This document shows positions 2,758-9,572 of a stretch of DNA of 9,572 nt, one piece after another. Source of the DNA: a virus (Duplodnaviria; Heunggongvirae; Uroviricota; Caudoviricetes); IMG/VR virus record IMGVR_UViG_2778261569_000018. One strand, written 5' to 3'. The notes beneath the pieces are model-generated. The model saw only the letters and a program-made list of their open reading frames with translations. It did not search any database and was not told the origin of the DNA. The translations under genes and the position numbers were made by a program. How positions within the stretch are numbered: position 1 is the stretch's first letter; each line of letters starts with the position of its first letter.

Positions 2758-3576
2758 TCAGCGCATGCTCTCCAGCAGCGTTTCTGCCATCACCCACAAT
2801 GCCCGGTTGAGCTTAATGTCGGTATCGATGCTGTGAATGGCACGGGTGTGGATACGTTTTCCTTTTGCACTGCGACCGGAAAGCCCGCCTTTCAGCATAT
2901 TCTCCTGGATGGTCTGATAAGCACTCCACAGGTCCTTACCGTAATCCTCCCTGCGTCGTGGTGTCAGAATGTCGGCGGTGGTGACGGGCTGATGTTCGTC
3001 ACCATAACGGTAAGTCAGTGCCGCCTGTGCCAGCGCCTGGCGTGCCGGTGGCGGCAGGACCAGCGACTGCATGGCATCACGCTTCTCCTCTATCCGGTCA
3101 AACACACCCACCACCTCGTAAGCCCCTTCAATGACTCTGTCCACCACATTTCCCCGGTGCGGAACACGCACTTCCCCCAGAGACTGACCACAGACGCAGC
3201 CGTTCTGGCAGACGAATCTGAAGTAACCCGGCAGCATCTGGTAGCTGGAGGTACCGTCATGGGAGTTGAGCAGAATAATTTCAGGGACATGTTGTCCGTT
3301 TATCTCCCCGTCACGGCGCAGACGCAGCATGTGTTTGGTATACCCCCGGCGGCCCGGGTCACGTACGCGGGTCTGGCAGGCGAAGAATGGCTGAAAGCCT
3401 TCCCGCTGCAGGCTTTCCAGCACTGTGATGGTGGGGATGTACGAATACCGTTCACTGCGGGAGGTATGCCGGTCTTCCCCAAAAATGCTGGGAACATAGT
3501 GCATCAGTTCTTCATGGGTCAGTGGGCGGTCACGGCGTATCTGATTAATCCGTCCGAAGCGACTGGCTAATCGCAT
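2758..3576 (-). CDS. DUF932-domain protein (YfjQ/YafZ family)
   Basis: The ORF-track frame extends to 3636, but the family N-terminus MRLASRFGRINQIRRDRPL begins at the ATG at 3574-3576, which has AAGGAG 6 nt upstream. The upstream extension overlaps a terminator hairpin. 273 aa as annotated. Confidence 0.8.
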   Translation of the reverse strand: MRLASRFGRINQIRRDRPLTHEELMHYVPSIFGEDRHTSRSERYSYIPTITVLESLQREGFQPFFACQTRVRDPGRRGYTKHMLRLRRDGEINGQHVPEIILLNSHDGTSSYQMLPGYFRFVCQNGCVCGQSLGEVRVPHRGNVVDRVIEGAYEVVGVFDRIEEKRDAMQSLVLPPPARQALAQAALTYRYGDEHQPVTTADILTPRRREDYGKDLWSAYQTIQENMLKGGLSGRSAKGKRIHTRAIHSIDTDIKLNRALWVMAETLLESMR

Positions 3577-3600
3577 AATTAACTCCTTATCTGATAATGA

Positions 3601-3640
3601 AATAAAAGCAAAAAGGCCATGTCCCCGGAGGAACATGGCC
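3601..3640 (-). terminator. Rho-independent terminator downstream of the 312-aa secreted-protein gene
   Basis: Minus strand reads GGCCATGT-(10 nt loop)-ACATGGCC (8-bp perfect stem, 3615-3622 with 3633-3640) followed by TTTTTGCTTTTATT (3601-3614). Confidence 0.6.
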
Positions 3641-3665: not shown

Positions 3666-4604
3666 TTAATGTTGCTGATTTTTCTCTTTAACTTTTGACC
3701 ATGAGGGGCGTCGGTTGCCGGAAAATTCCTTCTGCATTGACCAGTAACCAATCGGGAACTGCTTCACCAGCACCCCGTTGATACCAATATCGACGGACAG
3801 ATACTGACCGTTGTTGATGCTGCCCTTGCGGATGTACGCATCCGCACTGCAGGTGCCGGTATCATACTGCCGCCATGTTGCGGTATCGCGGGCGGCAACA
3901 TAAAAATCACCGAAAGCACAGCCCGTTGCTGACTTACGATTCAGAACGGCAACGTAATACTTAGTGTTGGCTATAATGGCGCAACTGCTGCTCTGACCGC
4001 CGCAGACCTGCCATAACGTTTTGCTGCTGTCACCCTTAAAGGTCCAGATAGTGTCTGCCGGTGCGCCGTCTGTATGTGTTACTGGCAATGCCGGAGCCTG
4101 CTGCACTGGTGTAACGTCGGGTACGTCGCGGCGTAATAGTCGTGCTTCAGCATCCCCGACATCGCCAAACATGTTTTCCTCTCCGCTGTTGTAATAAAAA
4201 CCGGCAATAACATGTTCTGAGGGGATATACAGTATTTTCAGATAATGGTCACCGCAATTACCCCGCTCACAGACAGACCCCAGCAGCCACTTCTCGTCAC
4301 CAACGACCACCGGAATTAATCCACTGTCAGGGCCGTTCATGGAGCCCTGTTTTCCCGTTAACCCGGTGAGTCCTGCTGACTTCAGCGCATCATCAAGGTC
4401 TTTCTTGAATACCGGGTCGGCATCGTAGATACTGCCCAGAAAGGGGCAGGAACCGTATCCGTTTTCATTATCACCAGCATCAGGATCACAGCGCATTGCA
4501 TCTGCTGCCGTTTTTGCGACACCGGCAGCGTAAACTCCGGTGGAAATAAAACAAAGCGAGGATATCAGTATTATCTGTTTTAATTTACGTAATACAAGAA
4601 ACAT
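3666..4604 (-). CDS. Secreted two-domain protein of unknown function; N-terminal domain carries an Ivy-like C-x4-C-G motif
   Basis: 312-aa ORF with ATG start. N-terminal signal peptide (hydrophobic core IILISSLCFISTGVYA, likely cleavage after VYA; no canonical lipobox). Cys-rich mature protein with VCERGNCGDHYLKILY motif. Terminator immediately downstream. Confidence 0.7.
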   Translation of the reverse strand: MFLVLRKLKQIILISSLCFISTGVYAAGVAKTAADAMRCDPDAGDNENGYGSCPFLGSIYDADPVFKKDLDDALKSAGLTGLTGKQGSMNGPDSGLIPVVVGDEKWLLGSVCERGNCGDHYLKILYIPSEHVIAGFYYNSGEENMFGDVGDAEARLLRRDVPDVTPVQQAPALPVTHTDGAPADTIWTFKGDSSKTLWQVCGGQSSSCAIIANTKYYVAVLNRKSATGCAFGDFYVAARDTATWRQYDTGTCSADAYIRKGSINNGQYLSVDIGINGVLVKQFPIGYWSMQKEFSGNRRPSWSKVKEKNQQH

Positions 4605-4669: not shown

Positions 4670-5080
4670 TTAAAAGTCAATGGTATTAAGACCAACATTC
4701 TTTTTGATGGAGGGATCGTAAATAACAACGGTAAGATGGTCTTTGTCTGAAGAACGGACAAACTTAGCGGTGGCCTCACCACTGCATGTTGCATGACGGT
4801 TATAATCCATCATTTTACCTTTGCTGGTAGCAAGATTGACAACGATGATATAAGGATCATAACAGGCCGAACCTCCCGGACTGCTCAGCAAGGCATATTT
4901 GCCATCATCAGAGACACCAATGAGGCTGCATATCCCGTCTTTTATATCCTCACTTCCGCACATCTGCTCACTTCCATCTTTCACATCAATCACAGTACGG
5001 GGTAATTTAACCTCTGTAGCATTAACTGATGCACTCAACAACAAACCTGAAACTATTAATGACAATATAAACGCTTTCAT
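4670..5080 (-). CDS. Small secreted protein of unknown function
   Basis: 136-aa ORF. Signal peptide MKAFILSLIVSGLLLSASVNA with predicted cleavage before TEV. Four Cys in the mature part. ATG start overlaps the primase stop (ATGA). Local sequence is visibly more AT-rich than its neighbours. Confidence 0.7.
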   Translation of the reverse strand: MKAFILSLIVSGLLLSASVNATEVKLPRTVIDVKDGSEQMCGSEDIKDGICSLIGVSDDGKYALLSSPGGSACYDPYIIVVNLATSKGKMMDYNRHATCSGEATAKFVRSSDKDHLTVVIYDPSIKKNVGLNTIDF

Positions 5081-5895
5081 ATACTCATCCTGTTTATCAT
5101 TACGGGGGATATATTCCTTTTATTCTGGGCGACATATAACAGGTTCCCGGCATCAATCGCCGCCACTGTCAGCGCCTCTGGACGAATTAAATGGGCAGAT
5201 AATGCCGTTGCCAGCCCTTCTGCGATTAAGATGCTCTGTGTTGTTTCTGGCGCGTTTATGGCGTGATATGCCCCCCGCTTTGCTGAACCTGTCAGGAGTC
5301 TTTTTTCACCATGTGATGTAATAGTCTGTGCTGCTGTGACTGCGCCGGATTTATCCACCAGCGCCAGCAACAGAGATCCATCGGGCAACACGGGGAATGT
5401 AAAATCACCTACCCCTTTCGCAACCAGATAATCAGATTTGCCGTTTACAGCCTTTCTGCGCATGTCATCAAACTGACGGGAAAACGTATCCCGTCTTTGT
5501 TGTTCGTCCTTCTCTGCCCTTTTCAGGCGCTCCTGTTCGCGTCGCTGGCGCTCGGTTTCCAGTTGTTCCCGTTTCTGGCTGGTGGCTTCTGGTGTTTCCG
5601 TTGTCCGGTAATCAATACCCAGAACATCAGCGGCAAGAAGCGCCGCCTCTGTTGTGTCGCAGTTATTTACGCGTTTAATTAAATCCAGCCCATCACCAGC
5701 GCCGCACTGATTACAGATGAAGCTACCGCGCCCGTTGTCATCGAACCGGAATCGATCTTTGCCCCCACATGCAGGGCAGGGAGCATGACGGCGCGGAGAG
5801 TCAGGGACATTTATGTTCAGGCAGCCCAGCACATGAGGCCAGTTGTTTTCAGACGCACTGATAACCTGACGGATAAGATCAATGTTTCGCATCAC
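5077..5895 (-). CDS. Primase-like protein: N-terminal zinc ribbon (primase-helicase type), coiled-coil linker, C-terminal Toprim-like region
   Basis: 272-aa ORF. CPACGGKDRFRFDDNGRGSFICNQCGAGDG is a four-Cys zinc ribbon of the kind found at the N-terminus of phage and plasmid primases. Charged linker QKREQLETERQRREQERLKRAEKDEQQRRD. C-terminal ILIAEGLATALS and AIDAG resemble Toprim acidic motifs. Confidence 0.75.
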   Translation of the reverse strand: MMRNIDLIRQVISASENNWPHVLGCLNINVPDSPRRHAPCPACGGKDRFRFDDNGRGSFICNQCGAGDGLDLIKRVNNCDTTEAALLAADVLGIDYRTTETPEATSQKREQLETERQRREQERLKRAEKDEQQRRDTFSRQFDDMRRKAVNGKSDYLVAKGVGDFTFPVLPDGSLLLALVDKSGAVTAAQTITSHGEKRLLTGSAKRGAYHAINAPETTQSILIAEGLATALSAHLIRPEALTVAAIDAGNLLYVAQNKRNISPVMINRMSI

Positions 5896-6250
5896 CGTAC
5901 CCCACGTGGTCTATAGCGTTTGCGATATGGCTAACCAGCATCTGCCACTTGGTTATTCCGTAATCAGTCAGCATGCCATCATTGTTTAGCCACATATCAA
6001 ATTCAGCGGTTGTCGCAAGTTTCCACTTATCGCCGTGGACAGTCCTCATTGCTGGGTACATGAATGCGCAAATCAGATCACAAACATCTGACGGCTTCAG
6101 AGATGTAGTAATGGTGCGTCCCTCTGGCGTCTGAATTGCCATTTTCTCTTCACCAGTAGAATGAAGGTTATGAATCCACACAGCACCAGCAATCTTTGCC
6201 ACCTGCTCTCCGATTGCGGAGCTAAGCGCCATTTCTGCATTTTCACGCAT
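5879..6250 (-). CDS. Hypothetical protein, 123 aa
   Basis: ATG start at 6248-6250. Its 3' end overlaps the primase start by 17 nt, and its start overlaps the upstream gene's stop (ATGCGTGA). Part of a same-strand, tightly packed operon. Confidence 0.6.
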   Translation of the reverse strand: MRENAEMALSSAIGEQVAKIAGAVWIHNLHSTGEEKMAIQTPEGRTITTSLKPSDVCDLICAFMYPAMRTVHGDKWKLATTAEFDMWLNNDGMLTDYGITKWQMLVSHIANAIDHVGYGDAKH

Positions 6251-6584
6251 GAGAACCTCCCGCTACAGTTGCGCCCATGTCATTAACCATGCTTTGCCAT
6301 ATCTCACGCCCGACGTCAGTCAATCCGTCCTTAGTGACGCAACGCTCAAGAAGCTCGATCCCCACGGTTTCCCACTGCGGGTAGAACACTTTCATGGCTG
6401 CCAGTGTGTAGCTATCGATCAGGCTGCGAACGCCTTTTACTCCATTAACGATTTCCACACGTACGGCCTCGCCGTCCGCATCAACCATGAAATAGTCCCC
6501 GCCGCTGGTGGAGGTAATGTGGTTATACAGTGCCGACGCATACTTATTTGCCAGCGCATTCAGTCGGAAATTTTTAGTAATCAT
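6243..6584 (-). CDS. Hypothetical protein, 113 aa
   Basis: ATG start at 6582-6584 with GAGGA upstream. Stop overlaps the next start in an 8-nt ATGCGTGA junction. Confidence 0.6.
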   Translation of the reverse strand: MITKNFRLNALANKYASALYNHITSTSGGDYFMVDADGEAVRVEIVNGVKGVRSLIDSYTLAAMKVFYPQWETVGIELLERCVTKDGLTDVGREIWQSMVNDMGATVAGGSHA

Positions 6585-6594
6585 GGCTCCATCC

Positions 6595-7197
6595 TCAGTG
6601 CGTCACTGGTTCCGCTGGCATGCCGTTTTCATTCAGTTCAGCTATAAAGCTGTTGTGAAGTTCAGCAAGCGTTTCACGACCAAATGGAGTCAGTGCTCCT
6701 TGTTCCACATCCATCATGGCTCTGTAGAAAATGATGGCGCGTTCTGTGCCAGACTCGATGCCAAAACGTTCTATCATCGCTCCCTCAATGTTGTTTGCCA
6801 TAGCGAGGCGCTCTGCTACTGGATACAGCGGCATGGCGACGATGCCGTTGGAATAAACAGCCACTTCGGAAGGATTGCCAGTATCATCAATGATGCTGAC
6901 AGTGCCGTTTTCCTCTCTCATTTCCAGCATGAATACTGTTGCGATCAGCCATCTCCACATAATGACGTTATGCTGTGATGTGTAATCGAAATATCCCTGG
7001 TTGCCGCCATCGGCAATAGCGAGATGTATTGACATACCTTCATCTGGTTTATCGTCATAATCCCCGGCATCCAGACGATTTACGGCATCAATATATGAGA
7101 CGGCCTCAACGCGTTCTGTCATGCCATCGTTGCTGCGGTACATGATGTTTACGCCGTCAGGCGTTGCTTCTGTATGGAAAGTTAAGAAATTATTCAT
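6595..7197 (-). CDS. Hypothetical protein, about 200 aa
   Basis: The ORF-track frame extends to 7302, but the ATG at 7195-7197 (MNNFLTFHTEATPDG...) has GAGG 6 nt upstream and forms the same 8-nt ATGAATAA overlap with the upstream stop seen elsewhere in the operon. Confidence 0.55.
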   Translation of the reverse strand: MNNFLTFHTEATPDGVNIMYRSNDGMTERVEAVSYIDAVNRLDAGDYDDKPDEGMSIHLAIADGGNQGYFDYTSQHNVIMWRWLIATVFMLEMREENGTVSIIDDTGNPSEVAVYSNGIVAMPLYPVAERLAMANNIEGAMIERFGIESGTERAIIFYRAMMDVEQGALTPFGRETLAELHNSFIAELNENGMPAEPVTH

Positions 7198-7411
7198 GTT
7201 TCGCCTCGCCTGAATGATTCTGTAACTCATATTTGCCCAACAATTCGTCCGCTTCCTGAATAGCTTCTGGTACGCCATTGAGCAGTGACATAACCGCGCC
7301 AATCATTAACTTGTCTCTGTTGCTGGGGCTGGCCCCTTCAAGCCAGAACCCTAAAACAGTCTGAACCTGTTCGATGCGACATTGCGCTTCAATGAGCTGG
7401 ATGTTGGTCAT
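7190..7411 (-). CDS. Hypothetical small protein, 73 aa
   Basis: ATG start at 7409-7411 overlapping the upstream stop (ATGA). Stop TAA at 7190-7192 overlaps the downstream start. Confidence 0.55.
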   Translation of the reverse strand: MTNIQLIEAQCRIEQVQTVLGFWLEGASPSNRDKLMIGAVMSLLNGVPEAIQEADELLGKYELQNHSGEAKHE

Positions 7412-7671
7412 TTCGCACTCTCCACATCGATTAAACCGATATCTATCAGGGAGGTAACTTTTTGTAGCCAGCTATTGATTACTGTCGCCTGTTCCCCGCC
7501 CACCGAGGGAACAATCTCATTCATCACATGAACCAGACCTGTGCGCGCTCTGGTAAGCCGTTCAGTCGCGCAATCTGCGGGAGTGAATGTGTCTGGATAT
7601 GGCTCTTCACGCCCCAGCAATGATTCAATTTCCAGCTCACACGGATGACGATAAATTAAGTTGATATTCAT
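7408..7671 (-). CDS. Hypothetical small protein, 87 aa
   Basis: ATG start at 7669-7671 overlapping the upstream stop (ATGA). Confidence 0.55.
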   Translation of the reverse strand: MNINLIYRHPCELEIESLLGREEPYPDTFTPADCATERLTRARTGLVHVMNEIVPSVGGEQATVINSWLQKVTSLIDIGLIDVESAK

Positions 7672-7862
7672 TTTTCACCCCCAAGAATTACCAGCTCGGC
7701 ACGGGCATCGTTAACCAAAGATGAGCACGCTTTAATCGCATCCACGACATCAGTAGCGTCCATTTCTTCAGCCGAAAGACTGACAGCAACCAGGACAGCC
7801 GCTGCTTGCTCGATTAATTGAAGTGCGGACGTAAGGCGAGGGGTATTAATTGAGTTATTCAT
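7668..7862 (-). CDS. Hypothetical small acidic protein, about 64 aa
   Basis: The ORF-track frame extends to 7919, but the ATG at 7860-7862 (MNNSINTPRL...) makes an 8-nt ATGAATAA overlap with the upstream gene's stop at 7855-7857. Confidence 0.5.
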   Translation of the reverse strand: MNNSINTPRLTSALQLIEQAAAVLVAVSLSAEEMDATDVVDAIKACSSLVNDARAELVILGGEK

Positions 7863-8073
7863 TGGTTGCCCCCGTTTTTCCTGGCATTTCGCCACCTTCC
7901 AGCAGGAAATGAACGTCACGAACGGCGAGATCCAATATCGCGAGTAACGCCTTCAGTCTTTCGTCTCGTGAGGGAGAGTTGCTCACCAGAATGTCGTTAA
8001 TCACTTCTGTCAGTGTGATGATCTGGCTTGTGCGTTCGAGGGGATCCATATGCACATCGTAGGTTTTAATCAT
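7855..8073 (-). CDS. Hypothetical small protein, 72 aa
   Basis: ATG at 8071-8073 (MIKTYDVHMDPLERTSQ...) preceded by GGAGGTG with a 4-6 nt spacer. It is the C-terminal part of the 355-aa ORF-track frame, but the strong internal RBS and the rare-codon run upstream argue for a separate gene. Confidence 0.55.
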   Translation of the reverse strand: MIKTYDVHMDPLERTSQIITLTEVINDILVSNSPSRDERLKALLAILDLAVRDVHFLLEGGEMPGKTGATNE

Positions 8074-8260
8074 GTGCCACCTCCATGCGGATACGACCAG
8101 CAAAAAAGCAGATGTGATCGCGCACCAGAGAACGGCGAGCATCGCGTTCAGACTCGGCAGCAATATGATGAATTTTGGCGGTAATTGTCGGGCAATCGCG
8201 GCGAACTGCGGCGATAATCCAGATAAATTGCGGTTTTTGGGTAGGGGTAGTAGCCAGCAT
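8066..8260 (-). CDS. Hypothetical small protein, 64 aa
   Basis: ATG at 8258-8260 ([22 protein letters not shown]...) preceded by AAGGAGG with a 7-nt spacer. Codon usage in this frame is good, while the alternative frame here has CTA CTA CCC CTA. Stop TAA at 8066-8068 overlaps the next start (ATGATTAA). The ORF-track start at 8407 is a TTG. Confidence 0.55.
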   Translation of the reverse strand: MLATTPTQKPQFIWIIAAVRRDCPTITAKIHHIAAESERDARRSLVRDHICFFAGRIRMEVAHD

Positions 8261-8922
8261 GTGGCAGCCTCCTTGTACTGGGAGTTCTTCCCACCACCGG
8301 AGCTGCGAAACTCGCTGGTGGTGGACTGAACAGAGTTCGCAGTACCGGCGTACAAGGAAACCGGCCAGCCTTTCGGCTGCCCTGTCCAGCCCACCATAAT
8401 TTTGCAAGCGACGCGGATTATAACCGCATCACTGAAAAAAGTGTGAGTCTGGCTAACGGCACAAAAAAAGACGCTCGGCGCGTCATGTGTCGCCTCGTAC
8501 ATTTCCGGGCTGCGAAACCCGGCACCCGTTTTATGAGGTGCCTTATAACCATAAACCGTGTTGCCGCATAACGGCAAGCTCTTTTTTATGGACTCCGAAA
8601 ACTCACTATTGGAAGCACCAGATGCACAATACATCGCGCTCATTTCGTTAACGTCGCGCGTGTGGACGAAGGTTTTTGTGGAGTCACTACGCGAGCAGAG
8701 AAAGCCATCTACGACCAGAAATTCTCTGGCGCAGCCGCCGACCTTCTCAACGCTAACACCATCGACCGTAATTTCTGACATAGTTAAGGCATCCGCTCCC
8801 ACCACCAGAAAATGATAAACTTTGCTTGTATCTGCTGTATTAATGCCAGACTTTGCTGTCATATTGCTGGATTTTGGCGACATACCAGCCAGTGAAAATA
8901 TCTTCTTCTGGACGGTTAGCAT
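8254..8922 (-). CDS. Hypothetical protein of about 220 aa, first gene of the operon; 3' end unresolved because the frame has no stop before 7855
   Basis: ATG at 8920-8922 preceded by GGAGG with a 7-nt spacer. Plausible codon usage from 8922 to about 8260. No family recognised. Confidence 0.4.
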
Positions 8923-9014
8923 TTGTTAACCTCCGCGAACTCCTTCATGAAGCGCGCCAGCGGTTGTACGCATGGCGATTGATACCCGTCGCGATAAAAC
9001 GTCACTCGGTTGTG

Positions 9015-9572
<558 letters not shown>

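Follow-up and report, generated by a model that had tools for sequence, protein, structure and literature searches.

Organisation of the locus

The stretch analysed here (the window, 9,572 nucleotides of the Caudoviricetes record IMGVR_UViG_2778261569_000018) carries on its minus strand a tightly packed operon of eight small open reading frames (ORFs), G1 to G8, which runs into the start of a primase-helicase gene and is preceded by two RNA elements, an isrK/P4 seqA-like RNA and a C4-type antisense RNA. All coordinates are positions of the whole window, and the features are collected in Table 1. We consider it likely that 5125..9011 is the remnant, truncated by the insertion sequence IS1203, of a phage-inducible chromosomal island (PICI) of the EcCIMP1 type, whose early or replication operon has the layout of the left operon of satellite P4, including the RNA switch proposed below. 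The nature of the feature is already known, i.e. a P4-type early operon controlled by antisense RNA in an EcCIMP1-like PICI, present here as a disabled remnant.

The eight ORFs, which extend over 8260..5879, were re-derived from the sequence, and every junction is as the first-pass annotation (made from the letters, without database searches) had described it: four 8-nt overlaps of the form ATGNNTRA, two ATGA overlaps and one 10-nt gap. A purine-rich, Shine-Dalgarno-like motif precedes every start. The overlap of G8 with the primase is 17 nt if the latter begins at the GTG at 5895, and 14 nt if it begins at the ATG at 5892, which is the start used by RefSeq in intact copies. Counting coupled ATG-initiated ORFs of at least 60 aa, the chain reaches eight members, where 300 shuffles yield at most two and the opposite strand yields one. 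The shuffles never come near the observed chain. The packing of the eight genes is borne out, and the view of the locus as a single co-directional, translationally coupled operon leading into the primase, and as a replication/regulatory module of a mobile element, is supported.

Concerning the start sites, RefSeq uses for G3 to G8, in identical or near-identical copies, exactly the short starts that had been proposed, and for G1 as well as G3 to G8 homologues and RefSeq agree on them. Seven of the products are acidic (pI 4.2-5.6); the exception is G1, the Icd protein, which is basic (pI 9.5) and which RefSeq names 'Icd-like' in some genomes. Scans of all eight products with Pfam, NCBIfam, PHROGs and PADLOC return only the Icd-like match of G1 and PHROGs of unknown function for G5, G6 and G7, and tblastn of all products against P4 finds icd and the primase only. 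The anti-defence role suggested in the first pass gains no support from PADLOC, which gives no match for the operon products and does not model anti-defence proteins. Profile searches, among the checks proposed in the first-pass annotation, provide a characterised relative for G1 and, as will be seen, a probable one for G6, and leave the rest without match to a characterised family.

The upstream RNA leader and its antisense pairing

The first pass missed the key feature of the locus, a pair of RNAs immediately upstream of G1, one isrK/seqA-like and the other a C4/CI antisense RNA, with targets at the ribosome-binding site of this gene, hereafter icd. Both elements score well above the Rfam gathering thresholds (Table 1). 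The isrK element contains an intrinsic terminator, identified by a terminator scan, with its stem at 8484..8470 and a U-run extending to 8464, and its position is the same in P4 and seven relatives. A putative constitutive promoter, the possible analogue of P4 PLE, would begin transcription near the 5' end of isrK, at 8541.

In its predicted fold, the C4 RNA exposes the loop a', UCCUUGUAC (8358..8350), and the single-stranded segment b', CUGCGAA (8342..8336). The loop is exactly complementary to GUACAAGGA (8278..8270), a site in the leader, called a2, that overlaps the Shine-Dalgarno sequence of icd, AAGGAGG (8274..8268). Segment b' is in turn exactly complementary to UUCGCAG, which occurs twice, once in the leader (b2, 8309..8303) and once in isrK (b1, 8516..8510, an exact 7-mer). 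The isrK element also holds a second upstream target, a1, GUACGAGG (8500..8493).

To follow these pairings in evolution, nine loci were compared, i.e. the window, Kosakonia, two Enterobacter, four other E. coli-type loci and P4, which together present seven distinct C4 loop sequences and five distinct b' sequences. Every locus has an exact complement of the loop at the Shine-Dalgarno sequence of icd, and seven have one in isrK as well; for b', eight of the nine have an exact complement in the leader and all nine have one in isrK. Over the whole alignment 92.4% of the cells are paired, against 27-51% when the partners are slid by one to three columns; 13 of 16 pairs are altered on both sides, and the observed values are reached in none of 500 shuffles. 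The distance from the 3' end of C4 to the first start codon is also maintained, at 52-57 nt in all nine loci. Judged by this covariation, the pairing of C4 with the ribosome-binding site of icd is kept in evolution. Among E. coli islands at the tRNA-Thr site there are at least two immunity alleles, of identical length.

Whole-molecule RNAduplex calculations of C4 against its flanks were uninformative, being dominated by long, unrealistic duplexes, and the counts of exact complements and the covariation are used here instead. Another structured RNA, the Rfam int-alpA motif (RF02996), lies between the integrase gene and alpA in five related loci (L006, L007, L009, L010 and L016), in a region whose counterpart falls outside the window.

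Table 1. Features of the window and of related loci discussed in the text (a dash marks the minus strand).
Feature	Position	Strand	Remarks
IS1203 end	9572..9012	-	inverted twin at 1-561; 561-nt perfect inverted repeat
DUF4222 3' remnant	9011..8916	-	cut by IS1203; coordinates transferred from L001; boundary of the IS arm at 9012
Long 'ash family' ORF, P4 eta analogue	8922..7855	-	355 aa; Pfam Phage_ASH 99 bits, residues 124-232
Putative constitutive promoter (P4 PLE analogue)	8577..8548	-	TTGCCG 8577..8572, 18-nt spacer, TATGGT 8553..8548; by eye
isrK / P4 seqA-like RNA element	8541..8464	-	Rfam RF01394, 69 bits (gathering score 50)
C4 / P4 CI-type antisense immunity RNA	8401..8314	-	Rfam RF01695, 81.1 bits (gathering score 45), full length
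Leader between C4 and icd	8313..8261	-	b2 UUCGCAG 8309..8303; a2 GUACAAGGA 8278..8270
G1	8260..8066	-	64 aa; overlap with G2 ATGATTAA
G2	8073..7855	-	72 aa; overlap with G3 ATGAATAA
G3	7862..7668	-	64 aa; overlap with G4 ATGA
G4	7671..7408	-	87 aa; overlap with G5 ATGA
G5	7411..7190	-	73 aa; overlap with G6 ATGAATAA
G6	7197..6595	-	200 aa; followed by a 10-nt gap with GAGGATGGAG before G7
G7	6584..6243	-	113 aa; overlap with G8 ATGCGTGA
G8	6250..5879	-	123 aa; overlaps primase start
Primase-helicase remnant	5892..5125	-	zinc ribbon and part of Toprim; ~256 of 918 codons
CP4-57/CP4-6-type decayed cassette	562-~5125	-	joined directly to the truncated primase
136-aa ORF of the cassette	4670-5080	-	matches phrog_8968
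312-aa ORF of the cassette	3666-4604	-
DUF932 gene of the cassette	2758-3636	-
Antirestriction protein of the cassette	2181-2666	-
RadC/JAB gene of the cassette	1689-2165	-
DUF987/YeeT gene of the cassette	1399-1620	-
CbtA toxin and YeeU antitoxin remnants of the cassette	~600-1333	-
355-codon 'ash' coding sequence	window 8922..7855; L012 3477-4544; L013 3759-4826		both E. coli immunity alleles keep the frame open
Fused G2/G3	L016 5001-5218; L017 5001-5287		L016 breakpoint at shared CTGAAG motif
RefSeq small ORFs, apparently propagated mis-annotations	L012 3030-3293; L014 3722-4036; L015 2884-3147 and 3144-3458

Icd, the long ORF across the RNA genes, and G2 and G3

Behind the immunity RNA, G1 is the first gene to be translated. 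It matches NF033153 ('host cell division inhibitor Icd-like protein') with 70.4 bits, is 41% identical to the kil region of P4 (E 4e-8) and evolves under clear purifying selection, with a ratio of nonsynonymous to synonymous substitution rates (dN/dS) of 0.13-0.37. The description of all eight genes as uncharacterised is hence wrong for this one, whose Icd/Kil-like product is likely a cell-division inhibitor. The first ~100 nt of icd also form the C-rich, G-poor peak of the operon mRNA (8280..8161), with a C/G ratio of 1.6-1.93 against a median of 0.85, a composition suggestive of a Rho-utilisation site.

A second reading of the same DNA is offered by the long 'ash family' ORF of 355 aa, which RefSeq usually annotates in place of G1 and G2. 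It overlaps the end of DUF4222 by 7 nt, spans isrK and C4, reads over icd in a different frame and then contains G2 in frame; its Phage_ASH match corresponds to 8553..8227, which is exactly isrK, C4 and the leader. None of the seven loci examined interrupts the frame, not even the two whose immunity segment is very different. In P4, in Kosakonia (L007) and in the E. coli locus L015 the Phage_ASH frame is that of icd. In the window lineage the long ORF is not in the icd frame, and the leader has 53 nt rather than 54; being one nucleotide shorter, it makes the long ORF cross icd out of frame and continue into G2. As read from these frames, the long ORF over the RNA genes is analogous to P4 eta, not identical to it.

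The notion that the ash ORF is purely an artefact of mistranslation was considered and softened, given that the frame is open across the second, very different allele and that eta of P4 is reported as translated (summarised in PMC10111431). As summarised there, translation of eta is coupled to the alpA homologue and takes place only from the upstream late promoter, and it keeps transcription from terminating (PMC10111431).

These observations bear directly on G2, the one gene whose proposed short start is partly called into question by homologues: a longer ORF in the same frame has been conserved and remains open in two different immunity alleles. Together with G3, G2 might have no functional product at all, both being translated spacers that keep Rho off the mRNA, with G2 as the tail of an ash/eta-like ORF. 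The frame that G2 shares with the conserved 355-aa ORF would agree with this, as would its narrow occurrence (only 20 near-identical homologues among 5.8 billion proteins) and the precedent of P4 eta, whose translation prevents termination as summarised in PMC10111431. Within E. coli, moreover, G2, G3 and G8 show too few substitutions for dN/dS, and hence, for the first two, to show purifying selection. The metagenomic contigs L016 and L017 add that short deletions fusing G2 to G3, with out-of-frame tails and a 16-nt gap before G4, are tolerated, so that both genes are dispensable.

Nevertheless, we regard the spacer explanation as unlikely. G2, an acidic protein, has a strong Shine-Dalgarno sequence of its own (GGAGG), its ATG falls right at the stop of icd, and an independent gene caller predicts it separately in L016 and L017. 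G3, also acidic and narrowly distributed (absent from L007 to L010, L014 and L015, and partly deleted in L016 and L017), has a dN/dS of 0.16-0.22, a value obtained on very few changes.

A probably Cnr-like gene before the primase-helicase

G6 encodes a very acidic core protein that matches phrog_1515 with 161 bits and has 550 homologues and 145 cluster representatives. Purifying selection on it is clear (dN/dS 0.07-0.30). A profile built from 60 sequences aligns with P4 ORF106 (Cnr, DUF5375) over 90 columns with an hhalign probability of 82% and an E-value of 1e-5, and distant members of the family show a few faint DUF5375 matches below the Pfam curated cut-off. Residues ~77-186 of G6 are, by this profile, probably homologous to P4 Cnr, and the label 'uncharacterised' is probably wrong for G6 too. 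The protein carries in addition an extra N-terminal beta/alpha domain. Its AlphaFold2 model has a pLDDT (predicted local distance difference test) of 92.9, and searches with this model in the PDB and BFVD return no structural neighbour.

The position of the gene points in the same direction, as in the simplest relatives G6 stands directly before the primase, with a gap of ~10 nt behind it, which matches cnr before alpha in P4. In that satellite Cnr is the copy-number regulator and acts directly on the alpha primase-helicase. By analogy, G6 is likely a regulator of the primase-helicase, and an interaction between the two is plausible. Of the P4-like elements, 90% have a gene of the cnr family between epsilon and alpha (PMC8628076).

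As to the primase itself, the intact gene has 2757 nt and encodes 918 aa with TOPRIM and DUF927 regions. What the window holds matches Pfam Zn_Ribbon_Prim and part of Toprim_3, corresponds to positions 14-247 of the 802 of phrog_2249, and has an N-terminus to which P4 alpha is 33% identical. Homology to intact islands ends at 5125; past this point the ORF continues in unrelated sequence of an island as far as a stop at 5077. The gene that the first-pass annotation took as the primase downstream of the operon is, in this copy, a truncated pseudogene.

Gene content varies among relatives and overlaps persist

Between icd and the primase, the relatives of the island differ in gene content, with persistent overlaps. 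Kosakonia and E. sichuanensis carry icd, G4, a 66-aa ORF and G6, to which Kosakonia adds G7; E. asburiae has icd, G4, G5 and G6; and Cedecea has two copies of G5, then G6 and G7. Some E. coli variants are without G7 and G8, and in others unrelated ORFs of 180 and 315 nt replace G2 and G3, alongside a primase of the P4 family.

This comparison bears on the proposal, made in the first pass, that the packing implies stoichiometric co-expression with the primase. In its strongest form it would have the eight products assemble with the primase, or be adjusted so as to assemble with it, into one stoichiometric replication or regulatory complex whose ratios are fixed by the overlaps. The unbroken packing up to the primase start would be in keeping with it, as would the Cnr-like nature of G6, P4 Cnr acting directly on alpha, and the conserved C-terminus of G8 that overlaps the primase start. 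A fixed complex would, however, not tolerate the variation found: the Kosakonia and Enterobacter relatives make do with icd, G4, an optional small ORF, G6, an optional G7 and the primase; in E. coli variants G7 and G8 are missing, or G2 and G3 give way to unrelated ORFs, and a different type of primase is used; and G2 and G3 are fused out of frame in L016 and L017. Content that varies under overlaps that persist argues against one fixed eight-protein complex, which we regard as very improbable. For the set as a whole stoichiometric co-expression is unlikely, since relatives keep the 4- and 8-nt overlaps and swap, lose or fuse G2, G3, G5, G7 and G8. A comparison of synteny across homologous islands, which had been suggested as a check, thus upholds the overlaps and not a constant set of genes. 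In our reading of these comparisons the small proteins are exchangeable cargo and not subunits of one complex.

Compatible with an antisense-controlled operon in a PICI remnant, and concerning the function of the cargo only, is the idea that G2 to G5, G7 and G8 are effectors of helper takeover, host takeover or counter-defence, carried as exchangeable cassettes like P4 epsilon or Icd. We hold this as possible, in a tentative way. The proteins are small and acidic, their cassettes turn over between relatives, G7 occurs also in the early-left operon of a temperate phage, and P4 has epsilon, the derepressor of its helper, at the same position. On the other hand, none of them matches a characterised family in Pfam, NCBIfam, the PHROGs of known function, PADLOC or the PDB, and G4 is unrelated to epsilon and orf151.

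Considering the cargo genes one by one, G4 is acidic and widely conserved, with orthologues of 52-54% identity that follow icd directly in Kosakonia and Enterobacter and stand further downstream in E. coli variants. At ~53% protein identity its synonymous sites are saturated. It shows no relation to P4 epsilon or orf151 and no match in the PDB, Pfam or PHROG. The acidic G5 matches phrog_20558 (E 2.9e-9) and has orthologues in L008 and L009, being duplicated in L009. Its dN/dS is ~0.4 over long distances and does not exceed 0.08 over short ones, and the trend towards purifying selection rests on the long distance only.

G7 matches phrog_37628 with 168 bits and is clearly under purifying selection (dN/dS 0.13-0.23). 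Present in L007, L009, L014 and L015 and absent from L008, L010, L013, L016 and L017, it behaves, on its distribution, as a mobile cassette found in some relatives only. A homologue with 68% nucleotide identity was also noted at 3991-4332 of OM284015.1 ('Elizabethkingia phage EKP1', L019), at the end of the early-left operon of this temperate phage. The recorded host of that phage is a member of the Flavobacteriia, for which similarity to enterobacterial sequence is surprising and may reflect a wrong host assignment or a recent transfer.

G8 has 21 homologue clusters with 52-71% identity, in Kluyvera, Citrobacter and Serratia, and its conserved C-terminus, VGYGDAKH, overlaps the start of the primase. 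Ubiquitin is the recurrent best PDB match of both G8 and its family profile, with 26% identity over 70 aa and the shared motifs GRxxT..KPSD and LSDYGI.K. The E-values of 1e-15 to 1e-19 obtained against polyubiquitin are the sum of nine weak repeats and were rejected as evidence for a ubiquitin-like protein, which is kept as a lead. Against a single ubiquitin G8 scores 13-15 bits (E 0.15-0.7), with an hhalign probability of 4%, and no member of the G8 family is matched by the Pfam ubiquitin models. The similarity of G8 to ubiquitin is hence weak and unproven.

A more speculative combination of these threads, which we think quite improbable as a whole, is that the exchangeable acidic micro-ORFs separating icd from the Cnr-like gene are, in satellites of the EcCIMP1 type, a hotspot for effectors of helper takeover or counter-defence, that G8 is a ubiquitin-like beta-grasp protein coupled to the primase-helicase, and that the long frame is selected to stay open for ribosome transit and not for its peptide. 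If this were true, a long ORF kept open whatever the frame of icd would be direct evolutionary evidence for selected ribosome transit.

Identity of the element and state of this copy

Islands of the EcCIMP1 type are satellites of P22-like phages, integrated at tRNA-Thr. The operon of the window is 98.9% identical to that of E. coli MP1, where it lies inside the published coordinates of EcCIMP1, a 19,963-bp PICI that excises, circularises and transfers only with its helper phage Kapi1 (PMC11773190). Its alpA is the master regulator induced by the helper (PMC11773190; Pick, Stadel & Raivio, ISME J 2025). The published description of EcCIMP1 makes no mention of Icd, C4, IsrK or the small ORFs (PMC11773190).

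Of 5,426 complete E. coli genomes, 925 contain some part of 5879..8560 and 257 contain most of it. Intact islands sit at tRNA-Thr beside proA, and their genes follow in the order integrase, AlpA-type regulator, a 143-aa ORF, AntA/AntB, DUF4222, 'ash family protein', six hypotheticals and primase-helicase. From alpA to ash the genes form a chain whose junctions are overlaps (of 1, 8 and 7 nt) except for a single gap of 12 nt. After the primase, DUF2824 and P22-type DNA-ejection genes are found in L001 and L002. Gram-negative PICIs have been described as four zones, for integration, Bro with the C4/isrK immunity RNAs, replication and captured late genes (PMC10111431). This layout is seen in the intact L001, L002, L016 and L017, with integrase, Phage_AlpA, AntA, DUF4222, the ash ORF with C4/isrK, and primase, all in one orientation, and the window keeps only part of zones 2 and 3.

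In the part retained, neither the RNA leader nor any of G1 to G8 is damaged, and all of them show 100% identity with their counterparts in intact islands. The copy is defunct all the same, with a truncated primase and the upstream route cut by IS1203. The break within DUF4222 separates the operon from the upstream alpA and antA part of the island; strain 14614 likewise has a partial DUF4222 beside IS1203. With the integrase side split off by IS1203 and the primase cut short, helper-driven excision, replication and transfer are impossible for the window copy as it stands.

Proposed control of the operon

The control that we propose for intact copies is modelled on P4. A transcript of the leader would yield the C4 RNA, as suggested by the Rfam match and by the precedent of P1 and P4. 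The C4 loop and the adjacent segment would then pair with the two sites in the leader and block translation of icd; here the pairing is what covariation indicates, and the block is what we infer from it. Left untranslated, the C-rich RNA of icd would let Rho terminate, as in P4, and nothing downstream would be made.

A helper phage would change this by inducing the alpA promoter. Ribosomes would translate alpA, the 143-aa ORF, antA, DUF4222 and the long ash ORF across the leader, a route that, by analogy with P4 eta, would be insensitive to C4. For this step the chain of ORFs and the open frame are observed, and the behaviour of the promoter is taken from the EcCIMP1 literature. Beyond icd, the 4- and 8-nt overlaps would pass ribosomes from cistron to cistron, such that one decision taken at the first ORF would reach the primase, and would leave no untranslated gap for Rho. 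The role of the coupling, we infer, would thus be to transmit one translation switch and to shield the mRNA from Rho.

It should be noted that several points weigh against seeing a P4-type switch and layout in this operon. The upstream a1 site, read by eye, has 8 pairs including one G-U, and the putative promoter, a weak match also found by eye, agrees with the consensus at 8 of 12 positions and falls under the scan threshold. Rho-dependent termination is not reliably predictable from sequence, and the C-rich stretch is accordingly only suggestive. The link between G6 and Cnr is one profile-to-sequence comparison at 82% probability. The nesting of kil in eta seen in P4 is not exactly reproduced, the long ORF here following the frame of G2. 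Finally, the element is not a P4-like satellite in the strict sense (de Sousa & Rocha 2021).

Comparison with known systems

The left operon of P4 shares with the window the succession of isrK/seqA, C4/CI, icd/kil, small overlapping ORFs, a gene that is probably Cnr-like and a primase-helicase with zinc ribbon and Toprim, the last being truncated in this copy; in P4 the order after C4 is kil region, epsilon, orf151, ORF106 (cnr) and alpha. There, too, the CI loop is complementary to two sites, one upstream and one at the first ribosome-binding site, and 8-nt stop/start overlaps occur. The isrK and C4 elements of P4, there named seqA and CI RNA (PMC3632133; PMC4825925), score with the same models at 8692..8615 and 8507..8420 of the P4 genome, respectively. 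The differences are that the middle genes of the window are unrelated to epsilon and orf151, that the helicase part is DUF927 and not of the P4 alpha type, that the long ORF across the RNAs is out of the icd frame, and that the island carries P22-type ejection genes instead of psu, delta and sid. In the intact islands none of psu, delta, sid and epsilon is annotated, and the small ORFs give no match to the Derepression family.

EcCIMP1 agrees with the island in gene order (int, alpA, antA/antB, DUF4222, ash, small ORFs, primase with TOPRIM and DUF927) and in its site at tRNA-Thr beside proA; the window copy differs in being a remnant, in which IS1203 interrupts DUF4222 and the truncated primase is joined to part of a CP4-type island.

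The immI region of P1 and P7 (c4, icd, ant1/ant2) is similar in that a C4-family antisense RNA is followed by icd. Expression of ant there reportedly depends on translation of icd, according to papers of the Schuster laboratory. It differs in what lies downstream of icd, which here are replication genes and small unknown ORFs and not the antirepressor, and antA/antB of these islands are upstream of the RNAs. In P1 and P7 c4 represses the synthesis of Ant (PMC8546580), and Icd of P1 targets FtsZ (PMC11897509).

A further parallel is the isrK locus of the Salmonella prophage Gifsy-1 (IsrK, orf45, anrP), where isrK is followed by a C4-like RNA and a small coupled first ORF: there isrK has a leaky terminator, the C4-like RNA (STnc1160) is processed, and translation of the small first ORF is linked to that of the gene behind it (Hershko-Shalev et al. 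2016, PMC4825925). The short IsrK RNA of Gifsy-1 acts in trans to switch translation on, and the locus produces an antirepressor and AntQ, whereas the output here is a replication operon.

What is added to the known picture is modest, namely the explicit link between islands of the EcCIMP1 type and a C4/isrK switch with several specificities, and the displacement of the long ORF from the frame of icd in the window lineage. The current understanding of satellites is not overturned. A block of 'hypothetical proteins' common in E. coli nonetheless gains a concrete regulatory frame, and the 355-aa 'ash family protein' of RefSeq needs care, as it overlies two RNA genes and, in the window lineage, contains icd in another frame. 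G4, G6 and, less surely, G8 are conserved unknowns worth study in the tractable EcCIMP1/Kapi1 system.

Neighbouring sequences and annotation names

The PICI remnant and the CP4-type cassette are enclosed by the two arms of IS1203, whose identity is taken from annotation in O111 genomes. Such genomes contain other IS1203-mediated variants of the same locus: between the IS copies, O111 strains 11128 and 1056-1 keep only the CP4-type block and strain 14614 only the PICI block. Among the complete E. coli genomes none has both blocks joined as in the window.

In the cassette, the 312-aa and 136-aa proteins have hydrophobic N-termini that resemble signal peptides. As regards names given to small ORFs of the related islands in RefSeq, 'nicotinic acetylcholine receptor subunit beta' (G4 family) and 'ubiquinol-cytochrome C reductase' (the 315-nt ORF) look spurious.

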